Source: Eledone cirrhosa
Taxonomy: Eukaryota
Direction: 5' to 3'
Length of the DNA: 64,000 nt
Assembly (NCBI GenBank): GCA_964016885.1
Contig: OZ024740.1
Coordinates: forward strand, 224,502,001-224,566,000
Position numbers and translations under genes: made by a program. A model generated the notes under the pieces. That model had not been told where the DNA came from. It worked only from the letters and a program-made list of their open reading frames with translations, and made no database searches. Shown one piece after another: positions 15,070-58,735 of this stretch; positions within the stretch are counted from its first letter, which is position 1; each line of letters opens with the position of its first letter.

Positions 15070-15115
15070 CAATATTTTGAAATATTTACTTCTGCGTTCA
15101 CAGATTGACTTTTTT

Positions 15116-15166
15116 AGTTTCAGAAGATCCCGTTAAGGGTGAAAGCAGCGATTCTTTCCTTAAACT
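15116..15166 (+). ncRNA. Hammerhead-like motif, family A (variant core CAGAAGA), in the PLE-1 3' end
   Basis: agttt-CAGAAGA-t.ccc gttaa ggg.t-GAAA-gca...t(g/c)c-TT-aaact. Stem I extends via acagatt/aatctgt. The same core is in copies at 21351 and 58637. Confidence 0.6.
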
Positions 15167-15746
15167 TTAATCTGTTATTTTAATAAATATTTGCTCTACG
15201 GTTCTTATATATTTGATATATATTTATCCTTATCGAGCCCTCTTTGGATTTTAGTCTACTAATTTATTATTATTACTATATATATAGTTTTTGTAGAGTT
15301 GCAGGTAAATGCGTCCGTAGGCGGTATGCTGGTTGAGTACTCGATGCATGTGAGTGTGTACATGTCTCTATATATATGTGTGTGTGTATGTATGTATATA
15401 TATATATATGTGTGTGTGTGTAGATGTATATATATATATATATATATATATATTTCTTTATGTATGTGTATATATATATATATATATATATATATATATA
15501 TATATATGGGGGGGGGGAGTTGGTGGTGTAAAAATGGTAGTAGTAGTAGTAGTAGTAACCGGAGAACAACTTTGAGTGGTGACAGGTGATGCATGAAAGT
15601 ATAAGGCCTTTTGACCAGCTAATGGATGAACGAAAGTGGACAGAAAGATGGTGATGATGGGATTATCAAACCAATGAAAATGCCGAAATAACAGGATGCT
15701 AATATGTACTACAAATAAAAAACCGGTGAGATGTTTGAACACACAA

Positions 15747-15822
15747 AACATATCTGATGATCCTTCGAATGAAGAGTCGATTCAATCTGTAATAGATCGT
15801 GCCTCGACATATGTAATATGTT
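15747..15822 (+). ncRNA. Degenerate hammerhead remnant in a (TA)n-terminated insert (~15558-15870)
   Basis: Perfect stem I aacatat/atatgtt, CTGATGA, GTA triplet and palindromic acatatgt stem III, but GAAA is not intact. Confidence 0.4.
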
Positions 15823-16904
15823 AATAAATGTGATATGATGCAACACTGATTCCTCGTTCCTTATAATTATTATATATATATATATATATATATATAATCA
15901 TACATATAGTGATATCATCATCATCATCATTAACATCCTCTTTCCCTGCAAACTATGGTTGGGCATGTCTTCACCGATTGAAGCAAGGCCACTGACCACT
16001 ATGAGAGGCTCGTGACTTGCATCTCCCTTACATATGATCCCAGGTTCTACCAATCATATTTTATTATGGCACCAGCACTATAGAGGTTGTTGTATCTTTG
16101 AACAACTGGCAAGCTTTCTACAGCTCTATGACCTTCCTATCACCAACTACTTTACAGTATTTACTGGGTGTTTTATTGTGTAGATCACCAACACTAGGGA
16201 GGTTGTCATATCATTGATATAACTGGAGGGTATTCCCAACCTTTTGTGAGACAAGTCTTATATGGCTGAATTACTAACCAATTTAGAATGTTACTGGGTG
16301 TGTTTATTATGTAGATCACCAATATATACATGTGTGCATGTATATGGCAACATTTTCTAGCAATCCTCACCCTTGCACATTCCATGGACCTTCTTCCAAA
16401 TCCTTGGTAGAACTATACTATCATACATAATATAAACATCCAAAATTAATGAAATGAATAGGTTGTTTGGATCTTCTTATGTTGACATCAGTGAGGGAGT
16501 CCATGAAATATATACATACACACACACATATACATACATACACACACACACGAACATGTATATATTGCTATTGTAATATTAATAATGTTATCATTATCAT
16601 CATCATCAACATTGTGTTAGTTTTATAGTATATCTAAAATTGTATTATCTAAATTGTCCTTCCATTTTTAAGTATATAGTGTGCGATATGTGTCCATTTG
16701 GCTACTTTTTCTACCATGTCAAGTTGCTCCATACAACATCCATCACTGATTTCCCATTGTTATTGTTGTCTTTTGTTGTTATCATACTACTGCTATTACA
16801 TTGTTGTTATTGATGCTTTTGTTGTAATTCAATCTCTTGTCAACCTAGGTTGATCAAATCTATGACCAAAAGCGTACATTTCTGCTCTGACTATCCCATT
16901 ACTC

Positions 16905-17103
16905 TATATTTACTATTGTATTTTTGTGGTAAAAGCTTTATCTCACATAATTATCTCACATAATATCGAATCTGTGAGATTTTGATATAAACTATTTGGG
17001 GAACAATACCTTAAGATTGGTATGAGTGGCCTGTTACAGCTAGTTTGAAAAGAAAGAGGTGAGAGAATTCTGGTCAGATGTGGCCGGTTTAAATTCTAAA
17101 GGG
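16905..17103 (+). mobile_element. Partial copy of the piggyBac-type MITE at 45819
   Basis: Aligns to 45845-46036 and ends taaaggg-tta. Confidence 0.65.
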
Positions 17104-57212: not shown

Positions 57213-57990
57213 ATCATCATCATCATCATCATCATCATCATCACCACCGTTTTACGTCCGTTCTTCCACGCTAGCATGGGTTAGACGGGTTGTCCTGTTG
57301 TGGGCAGTGTCTGATCGGCTGACCATGCCTTGCTCATACAGGAACTGATTTGGCTTGATTTCTACAGCTGCATTCCCTTCCTAACACCAACCTCATTTAC
57401 AGTGAGTACTGGGGGCTTTTTCATGGCGCATACACGTCCACTTTACAGTGTGGGCTGGGTGCTTTTTTGCCGTGGCACCTCCACGACTACCTGGCAGTGG
57501 GAGGGTGTGGGGGCATATTGTCTATATGCTTCGGCTTGTACCCATGGGAGGTCGGGTACTCTGTATTACTGCATGATGCCAGAGGTCACGGTCGTGTGTC
57601 ATTGCTTTTGAGAGGTGTAATTGGGTAAGGTCGGCTTTTATCACCTCATCCCAGGTCTTTTTGGGTCTCCCCATTCCACGGCTTCCATTGACTTCTAGTG
57701 CTCTGCACCTTTTTATGCAGCTGTCATCCTTCATACGCATCACATGTCCATACCAACGCAACCGCCTCTCCTGCACACAGCATTTGATTCCTCTTATGCT
57801 CAGTCTCTCTCTCAATTCATTTATGCTTTGTCATTCGCGTATATTACTATTACACATCCATTGGAGGATGCAGGCTTCGTTTTTCTCTAATCTACGTAAG
57901 TCTTCCACCTTCAGCGCCCAGGTCTCAATACCATGTAACATTGCTGTTTGGATACACGCATCATACAGTCTGTCTTTCATTTTGAGGGAG
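57213..57990 (-). mobile_element. RTE(X)-type LINE copy 2, 3' fragment (related subfamily)
   Basis: [28 protein letters not shown]; 3' UTR homologous to 1377-1753; (CAT)n tail. Confidence 0.93.
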
Positions 57991-58361
57991 ATATATATAT
58001 ATGTATATGTATATATATATTATATATGTATATATAAATATATATATACATATATAAATATATATATACATATATATATACATATATATACATATATAAA
58101 TATATATACATATATAAATATATATATACATATATATATACATATATATATTTATATATATATATATATATATATATAATATATATATATATATATATTT
58201 ATATATATATATATATATATATATATATATATATATATATATATATATATATATATATATATATATATATATATTATATATATATATATATATATATATA
58301 TATATATATATATATATATATATATATATATTTATATATATATATGTATATATATATATAT

Positions 58362-58559
58362 ATAACGAAGGAAATGTGGTAAGGAACCAGGTGGACCATA
58401 ACGCACCAAAGTACTCAATACTTGAGGTAGTAGAGTGGGTAATAGGAACCAGTAAGACCCCGACAGCTGAGCTCAAGCCGTTTCGACGGCTAATTCTGGA
58501 CTGAATTAGCCGTCGAAACGGCTTGAGCTCAGCTGTCGGGGTCTTACTGGTTCCTATTA
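58362..58559. mobile_element. Hammerhead family F insert with a perfect 57-bp palindrome
   Basis: Arms 58440-58496 and 58503-58559. The sense arm has gtc-GAAA-cggc ttgagctca gct-GTC-ggggtc. Flanked by (TA)n. Confidence 0.9.
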
Positions 58560-58612
58560 TATATATATATATATATATATATATATATATATATTTATAT
58601 ATATATATATAT

Positions 58613-58735
58613 ATATTTATTAAAATAACAGATTAAAGTTTAAGCAAAGAATCGCTACTTTCACCCTTAACGGGATCTTCTGAGACTATCGAGCCCTCTT
58701 TGGATTTTAGTCTTCAATTTTATTATTATTACTAT
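58613..58735. mobile_element. Mini insert of the PLE-1 3' end with an inversion (hammerhead A at 58637-58687 on minus; terminal 50 nt on plus)
   Basis: 58613-58687 is the reverse complement of 15116-15190; 58687-58735 matches 15230-15280. Confidence 0.9.

Follow-up and report, generated by a model that had tools for sequence, protein, structure and literature searches.

Penelope-like elements (PLEs) of the Hydra clade have been described by Craig et al. (2021, PMC8557442) as carrying hammerheads and targeting (TA)n, and the supplement to that account (File S1/S2) lists Hydra-1_Obim of Octopus bimaculoides with a (TA)n preference and a hammerhead. Small non-LTR (LTR, long terminal repeat) retrozymes of metazoans co-occur with PLEs (PMC7229834; 10.64898/2026.07.22.740005). 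In the Poseidon element PAc, reverse transcription starts internally in vitro at two sites that bound the "tail", the required RNA region reaches downstream of these starts, and hammerhead cleavage is dispensable (Frangieh et al. 2024, PMC11167929). Which enzyme moves animal retrozymes and what fixes the internal starts of PLEs are stated as open questions in these reports (PMC7229834, PMC11167929, 10.64898/2026.07.22.740005). Here, we describe a 64,000-nucleotide stretch of the Eledone cirrhosa genome (assembly GCA_964016885.1, contig OZ024740.1, positions 224,502,001 to 224,566,000; hereafter the window) that contains many hammerhead motifs beside (TA)n tracts. Judging from the sequence, we give a probability of about two in three to the reading that these motifs mark the 3' ends of Hydra-clade PLEs and of hammerhead retrozymes ending in (TA)n, and that the Hydra enzyme is likely to copy the retrozymes by means of a predicted start-site hairpin, with reverse transcription starting 5–11 nt upstream of it.

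The Hydra clade, its targeting of TA in Octopus, hammerheads in PLEs and the view of retrozymes as likely passengers of PLEs are already known, and since Hydra-1_Obim is listed in the PMC8557442 supplement, the suggestion of a first-pass annotation of the window that the TA specificity may be undescribed in this lineage does not stand. The start hairpin, on the other hand, is apparently undescribed. Neither the hairpin, nor its one-per-start arrangement, nor the retrozyme families, nor their genome-wide scale was found in the literature searched (subscription journals and Repbase/Dfam notes lay outside reach), where no publication dealing with the hairpin or with octopus retrozymes came up. 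The accessible parts of the Hydra-clade account and its supplement (PMC8557442) do not describe the hairpin, and a recent repeat annotation of O. vulgaris nowhere mentions ribozymes in its available text and term counts.

Hammerhead families and their parents

The 14 hammerhead sites of the first-pass annotation were read individually, scanned with a descriptor against shuffled sequence, and compared with alignments of 30 genomic copies per family. Twelve of them hold, in families A, B, C, D, E, F, G and I, including the site at 15747 in family B, which had been called degenerate and is so. Type I hammerheads with stems I–III have cores starting at 15121 (+), 21396 (−) and 58682 (−) in family A, 17896 (−) and 18078 (+) in C, 18713 (−) in D, 30472 (−) and 30915 (+) in E, 31545 (−) in F, 34957 (+) in G and 38135 (+) in I. 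The core is canonical (CUGAnGA...GAAA...UH) in C, E, F, G and I, and in intact genomic copies of B; the window copy of B (15640–15870, +; core at 15754) is missing ~17 nt including GAAAC, and the core is kept in 15 of 30 genomic copies. Families A and D deviate at one position each, with CAGAAGA (U4A) in 24 of 24 and TTGAAGA (C3U) in 26 of 26 copies that are intact, out of 30 aligned for each family. Half-motifs near 34690 and 58510 had also been noted, and proved to be the hammerhead 3' halves of family J, represented by two fold-back copies (34652–34811, +, with a ~80-nt tail and a hairpin at 34740–34763; 58365–58557, −, hairpin at 58413–58436). Longer genomic copies complete the J core, which in the five copies that reach it is TTGAGAA (U3-A8) in three and CTGAGAA (C3-A8) in two.

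The two sites that did not hold, 35537 (−) and 35842 (+), lack a hammerhead core. They lie in family H (35436–35878, −), in which 20 genomic copies mostly read CTGAAAC/T and never CTGAnGA, and no descriptor match was obtained. Family H (1240 candidates) is nevertheless a genuine TA-terminated repeat with two ends; in the window it has an inverted arrangement, with a truncated Hydra open reading frame (ORF) attached to the inverted arm.

A strict descriptor gave 5 matches in the window against a mean of 0.17–0.23 (maximum 2) over 30 shuffles, and skipped the 18078 (+) and 30915 (+) copies, which have substitutions in stem II; an excess over shuffled sequence was also seen in the genome sample described below. 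An Rfam scan of the window had no hammerhead family among the 150 matches listed of 238, only microsatellite-driven microRNA matches, and minimum free energy folding did not single out the hammerheads (z-scores modest, −2.1 to +0.6). Compared with the minimal hammerheads of PLEs (Cervera & de la Pena 2014, PMC4209133), those of C, G, I and B have the same short palindromic stem III, an unpaired or mismatched base at stem II recurs, and J shares the U3-A8 variant reported in Schistosoma PLEs, whereas D, E, F and J differ in having long stems II/III. The fixed U4A core of A and the C3U core with G8 of D are not described in the available part of that study. As had been stated, the hammerheads lie upstream of the 3' ends, with a measured distance from cut to end of 95–275 nt in place of the estimated ~100–360 nt.

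Families A and I are, as placed by diagnostic motifs, 3' untranslated regions (UTRs) of Hydra-clade PLEs, and the earlier statement that they belong to the 3' UTRs of GIY-YIG PLEs agrees with several copies that run upstream into GIY-YIG ORFs. In the window, the family A element (10960–13516, +) is 5'-truncated and broken; it retains a reverse transcriptase (RT) remnant, the CxCX5C linker, the GIY-YIG endonuclease (EN) to 12532 and the start of a ~1 kb 3' UTR, and is interrupted by a short repeat (11187–11303). Two genomic copies (loci L303 and L301) are colinear with window positions 10960–11186, 11300–12909 and 13050–13516, and genomic copies join 13516 directly to 15067; between these points the window has an unrelated RT-bearing non-LTR fragment (13517–15066, −; RVT_1 match at 13897–14430) within the 3' UTR. 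The 3' end of the family follows (15067–15275, +), with the hammerhead at 15117–15165, the start-site hairpin at 15193–15238 and TA at 15276. Another A 3' UTR copy lies at 21240–22181 (−; hairpin 21278–21324), and a short copy that has an inverted terminal piece, with TA at both ends, at 58617–58738 (−). The family I element (35877–38390, +) is also 5'-truncated and has the RT thumb, the CxCX5C linker, the EN (frame to 36599) and a ~1.8 kb 3' UTR, its terminus being fused to TA at 38391.

Longer natural copies of family I carry RMRWK, DKT (ADKTN) and CNCRSTATC, have CxxC/CxH and lack CCHH, and family A copies carry RLRWR, DKT (SDKTG) and CNCRNRVDC. Both families have the Hydra diagnostics, namely the CxCX5C linker together with a C-terminal GIY-YIG EN without CCHH in which CxxC and CxH lie near the E and N residues, and in both DKG is changed to DKT; the RWR variant of RWK is found in metagenome relatives as well. 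Their longer copies show a pLTR-ORF-pLTR layout (pLTR, pseudo-LTR) with a pLTR directly before the ORF, a hammerhead in the pLTR and insertion into (TA)n, as in the Hydra description. Thus, RWK/DKT, linker, EN type, pLTR hammerhead, (TA)n insertion, tail and inverted copies are shared with the published clade (PMC8557442). The differences are the tens of thousands of fragments in several families, the 1–1.8 kb 3' UTRs, the thumb-region insertion of family I, and the RWR and U4A core of family A. Copies span ~3.3 kb (A) and ~4.6 kb (I) and every one retrieved was broken, the Hydra description being of elements <3 kb with a single ORF. A 59-amino-acid piece used as query gave 34,916 first-look candidates in the genome. 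The sole match of the family I protein that is named to an animal species was from Argonauta hians (44% identity), and neither of two short motifs from the published Hydra-1_oBim hammerhead turned up in the loci examined.

The family I ORF (loci L325:1315-3468, L326 and L327) contains a ~170-amino-acid low-complexity insertion in the RT thumb region, which is not seen in A or in ~700-amino-acid relatives.

A third PLE begins at 63423 and runs to the end of the window (64000, +), with a CX4CxxC linker, an EN with paired cysteines and histidines of the CCHH type, and an inverted tail at TA; a 3' UTR with a minimal hammerhead-like motif and a TA end lie just past the window. Copies of this CCHH-type family are abundant; they have two termini, end at TA and carry a different tail stem. 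By linker description, it may be Neptune- or Nematis-like. The Naiad clade, which has an N-terminal EN and no canonical hammerhead, was considered for the three PLE families and rejected, as the EN is C-terminal in all of them.

Families C, D, E, F and G, by their sequence features, match the description of retrozymes. Head-to-tail tandem copies give monomer periods of 438 nt (C), 609 nt (D), 553 nt (E), ~695 nt (F) and 645–881 nt (G), each monomer with a type I hammerhead; the longest sense ORFs are 33–95 amino acids, without coding capacity, and the GC content is 33–39%, below the 50% of the description. The five families have no BLAST similarity to each other or to the A and I UTRs, and in 30 copies each no colinear PLE ORF is shared upstream. 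In the window, family C (17723–18287, +) is an inverted truncated copy plus a direct copy with a 36-nt tail and TA at both ends; family D (18349–18739, −) has long stems II and III; family E (30129–31170) is a divergent inverted pair with a partial tandem and a hairpin at 30708–30749 (+); family F (31249–31984, −) is one monomer plus a partial tandem with a 95-nt stem II; and family G (34925–35380, +; monomer 650–880 nt) has a palindromic stem III. Their insertions have PLE anatomy: partial tandems, inverted truncated copies (inverted 5' pieces in 22 of 30 family C copies) and two termini with a tail between them. Like the metazoan retrozymes described so far (PMC7229834; 10.64898/2026.07.22.740005), they are non-coding, low-GC tandem monomers with a type I hammerhead that co-occur with PLEs. 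Unlike these, they are mostly dispersed 1–2.5-mers with PLE-type termini at (TA)n, and a shared cis motif, not pLTR homology or co-occurrence, is what connects them to one PLE clade. Family D, with copies 98–100% identical, is the youngest; family B, which also left an inverted, TA-fused tail piece at 15287–15347 (−), is older (76–87% identity).

A hairpin past the insertion ends

Tails were extracted de novo from 204 inverted/direct pairs in all host loci and formed 42 clusters. TA microhomology of at least 3 nt starts 22 of the 42 clusters, and, judged by the reference copies, is found at 12 of the 16 main termini, or at 13 if the commoner E variant is counted, against a null of 6.3% (the G, J and N references were TA-swamped, and only peaks outside TA runs were used). 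RCTC occurs at +2 to +13 in 21 of the 42 otherwise unrelated clusters (null 6.0%), and 17 of these 21 have a GAGY partner, the pair between the arms being A-T in 12, G-C in 4 and A-C in 1 (Fisher p=0.002). Past the insertion ends, the order is a short TA microhomology and then an RCTC...GAGY-RC hairpin (pattern RCTC-Y-loop-RTH-GAGY-RCT) at an offset of 5–11 nt. Both termini of A (offsets 6 and 6) and of E (11 and 7) have a motif of their own; in family I the long terminus is followed by the motif within the same range and the short terminus has an imperfect version. The Hydra motif is also carried by E, G, J and B. The families indeed show no BLAST similarity to one another, as reported earlier; the statement that they have none outside the core is incomplete, because they share this motif past the 3' end.

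Metagenome relatives of the Hydra clade comprised 78 loci, 44 of them with enough leader, in 37 families. Some of these loci, among them L337, L342 and L371, have an intact ORF of ~700–750 amino acids. The motif lies at most 100 nt before the ORF start in 32 of the 37 families versus 22 of 511 ORF windows. At least two copies, spaced 55–83 nt, are present in 24 families; 54 motifs are in the sense and none in the antisense orientation; and 6 of 9 TA-fused termini are followed by the motif.

The clade motifs, the pLTR-ORF-pLTR layout, the tandem and inverted two-terminus insertions, the TA junctions and the motif with its offset are read from the sequence; the steps that would connect them are proposed. 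A Hydra protein would bind a tandem or circular transcript through the hairpin, and its GIY-YIG domain would nick an existing (TA)n tract. The nicked end would then anneal to the template over 2–7 UA-rich nucleotides immediately 5' of the hairpin, priming internal reverse transcription. Two hairpins would provide two start sites, giving the tail and the inverted/direct pairs, and the hammerhead, 95–275 nt upstream, would probably process multimeric RNA and usually be copied uncleaved. Retrozymes that bear the hairpin would be copied in trans by the Hydra RT, so that the shared hairpin would explain how non-coding passengers get copied. With somewhat less assurance, we also lean towards a wider formulation, in which Hydra-clade PLEs use an RNA hairpin, conserved across marine eukaryote lineages and present once per start, for internal TA-primed reverse transcription, and dozens of unrelated retrozyme families acquired it and spread SINE-like (SINE, short interspersed nuclear element) to ~200,000 hammerheads. 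If true, retrozyme mobilization and the PLE tail would for the first time have a defined cis signal. With a short fixed-offset motif common to autonomous and non-autonomous elements, both of the questions raised above can be tested using a single protein and a handful of RNA mutants, and the hairpin could allow chosen RNAs to be loaded onto a TA-targeting reverse transcriptase.

The proposed scheme resembles PAc (PMC11167929) in its two internal starts that produce a tail, in a signal region downstream of the start and in hammerhead cleavage that apparently does not set the inserted 5' end. It differs in belonging to another clade, in the short TA microhomology at the starts and in a clade-wide motif repeated once per start. 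Ribozyme cleavage as the event that sets the 5' ends of insertions was considered and rejected: in nine families, 30 ends fell at 0 to +25 of the cut versus 27.9 expected, which is consistent with uncleaved or religated templates. Family D alone had 6 such ends versus 1.2 expected, in a post hoc comparison.

Several observations weigh against the use of the hairpin by a Hydra enzyme as proposed. Among the copies retrieved there is no intact full-length ORF. Initiation by the Poseidon element occurs without target homology (PMC11167929). Half of the 42 tail clusters are without the motif, some of them being from other PLE clades, SINE or LINE (long interspersed nuclear element) ends or noise. 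Predicted pairing in 52 of 61 motifs is no better than that of chance ORF motifs (6 of 8). The stem hardly varies among the metagenome families (of 62, 50 G-C, 1 T-A and 11 mismatched), and the covariation therefore rests on the host genome, where the A-T/G-C alternation may be a single ancestral change. Fixed core changes may lower the activity of the A and D hammerheads. Family C has a degenerate motif only, D and F have a 5' arm with no matching 3' arm in the 60 nt examined, and weak-motif D is nonetheless the youngest family. Finally, inverted copies are absent from D (0 of 29) and F (0 of 30), which makes a different driver possible for these two.

The near-invariance of the sequence across phyla would also fit a signal acting at the level of DNA, such as an internal promoter or a site for an endonuclease or other protein, that retrozymes keep for transcription, its proximity to termini being secondary. 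The 3' arm, GAG-YR-CTY, is near-palindromic, the motif stands in the 5' leader directly before the ATG, and the Penelope tail has been reported as necessary for EN recognition (PMC11167929). We regard this explanation as unlikely, as the arms change in a matched way (A-T/G-C) across loops of 10–73 nt, a separate motif follows each of the two termini at a near-fixed distance, and the motif is strictly on the sense strand.

The weak motifs of C, D and F bear on another alternative, that some or all of the short families, notably these three, were moved by another TA-targeting PLE, for example the CCHH-type element at 63.4–64 kb, which is abundant and also TA-ended with two termini, or that they are truncated 3' UTRs of unfound parents. 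No parents were found for J and B (J copies were taken from flanks). This is conceivable but doubtful: C, D, E, F and G are head-to-tail monomers without a colinear PLE ORF upstream, and the Hydra motif is present in E, G, J and B. Copying by the Hydra enzyme through the hairpin remains the explanation that we prefer.

Most family J copies are truncated or inverted 20–47 nt upstream of the predicted cut, within stem II, giving short fold-backs.

(TA)n tracts and genome-wide scale

The fusion of 3' ends to (TA)n, as noted at first pass, was borne out in every family measured. Within 25 nt of the 3' end, (TA)4 follows in 21 copies of C, 23 of A, 30 of I, 29 of D, 28 of F and 16 of B, out of 30 each (background 3.2%); within 130 nt, it follows in 28 of 30 copies of E and 29 of 30 of G (background 11%). 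Randomly truncated 5' ends adjoin TA as well, in 15 of 24 cases for D and 14 of 30 for F (background 2.2%); this points towards insertion into pre-existing tracts. The tracts are probably targets that were split by insertion, and TA synthesis is neither required nor excluded by these data. Accordingly, the claim that PLE families and non-autonomous derivatives target (TA)n is upheld; the added idea that they may help generate the tracts is not, as far as synthesis is concerned, given the truncated 5' ends at TA and the tract lengths.

The tract lengths were compared in D and F only (automatic boundaries of E and G overran TA-rich interiors, and the A and I references were incomplete), with the D tests leaving out the duplicates L171-L174 as well as L178 and L180. 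Overall, 3' tracts are longer than 5' tracts in both families. One could envisage that the elements make the tracts, the RT reiteratively copying the UA microhomology in a telomerase-like manner prior to the element: D copies with both tracts have longer 3' than 5' tracts (44 vs 22; n=15, p=0.02), tracts that adjoin recurrent termini have a slightly higher median length (26 vs 22), and at least 25–30% of tracts adjoin a recurrent terminus. However, F shows no asymmetry (13 copies with both tracts, p=1.0), the observed medians (39 and 25.5) stay below the mean of 48 expected for size-biased half-tracts, so that 3' tracts are no longer than splitting of existing tracts predicts, some insertions lie in coding sequence without a tract (copy L140), and ~70% of tracts have no detected terminus. 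We therefore consider tract synthesis improbable and insertion into existing tracts the better account.

Single TA tracts have 3' ends of different families on both sides at 18287–18349, 31170–31249, 35382–35436 and 58557–58617, which suggests nested targeting of the same tracts.

The window is part of the largest contig in a 3.0-Gb assembly with four chromosomes of 380–440 Mb and many smaller ones. Sixty evenly spaced 10-kb stretches (600 kb) served as a genome sample, of which (TA)n tracts make up 4.3%. In this sample, 42 canonical-core motifs scored at least 10, versus 6, 2, 2 and 2 in four shuffles, a net of ~65 hammerheads per Mb that extrapolates to roughly 2x10^5 (1.3–2.6x10^5) per genome. 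The density of the window, which the first-pass annotation had suggested may be undescribed in this lineage, is ordinary for this genome, because the sampled density is comparable. (TA)5 was found within 250 nt downstream of 34 of 41 and upstream of 17 of 42 sampled hammerheads (background 17.8%), and 156 of 631 sampled TA tracts adjoin a recurrent terminus (73 clusters, some of them SINE or LINE ends). First-look candidates per family number 820–3142, as lower bounds; in the 0.6-Mb sample A has 12 loci and J has 14 (~60,000–70,000 each genome-wide), and the other families have 0–2. Published counts, made with other descriptors, are ~9,000 for Xenopus, >6,000 for a coral, ~5,000 for a mussel and up to 120,000 for axolotl. 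If true, a figure of ~200,000 hammerheads would place this genome among the animal genomes with the largest ribozyme loads known, and the census suggests a large unannotated hammerhead-retrozyme fraction beside at least one quarter of TA tracts. U3-A8 cores seemed to be enriched in the sample, but this was discarded, since the signal came mostly from one tandem repeat (L267); only J and one other pair look real.

Other features of the window

An extra degenerate hammerhead, absent from the earlier list, lies at 33655–33760 (+; core CAGATGA at 33664) and by eye resembles a family in the sampled stretches. Upstream of its hammerhead, the family C monomer contains three octamer-like words spaced ~33 nt apart (ATGCAAAT/ATGCAGAT; window 17940–18040; 0.04 expected per 440 nt). 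Newt satellite 2 has a promoter of the small nuclear RNA type with an octamer. A multi-copy element at 49968–50558, tandem (~320 nt) and inverted between two TA tracts, has PLE-type anatomy, and the descriptor finds no hammerhead in it. Short palindromes beside TA tracts at 10712–10789 and 32162–32239 are possibly older PLE-type fold-back ends. RTE-like and other LINE remnants, recognized by translation and Pfam matches, occupy 1–1754, 42679–45000, 57222–57991 and 60068–61326.

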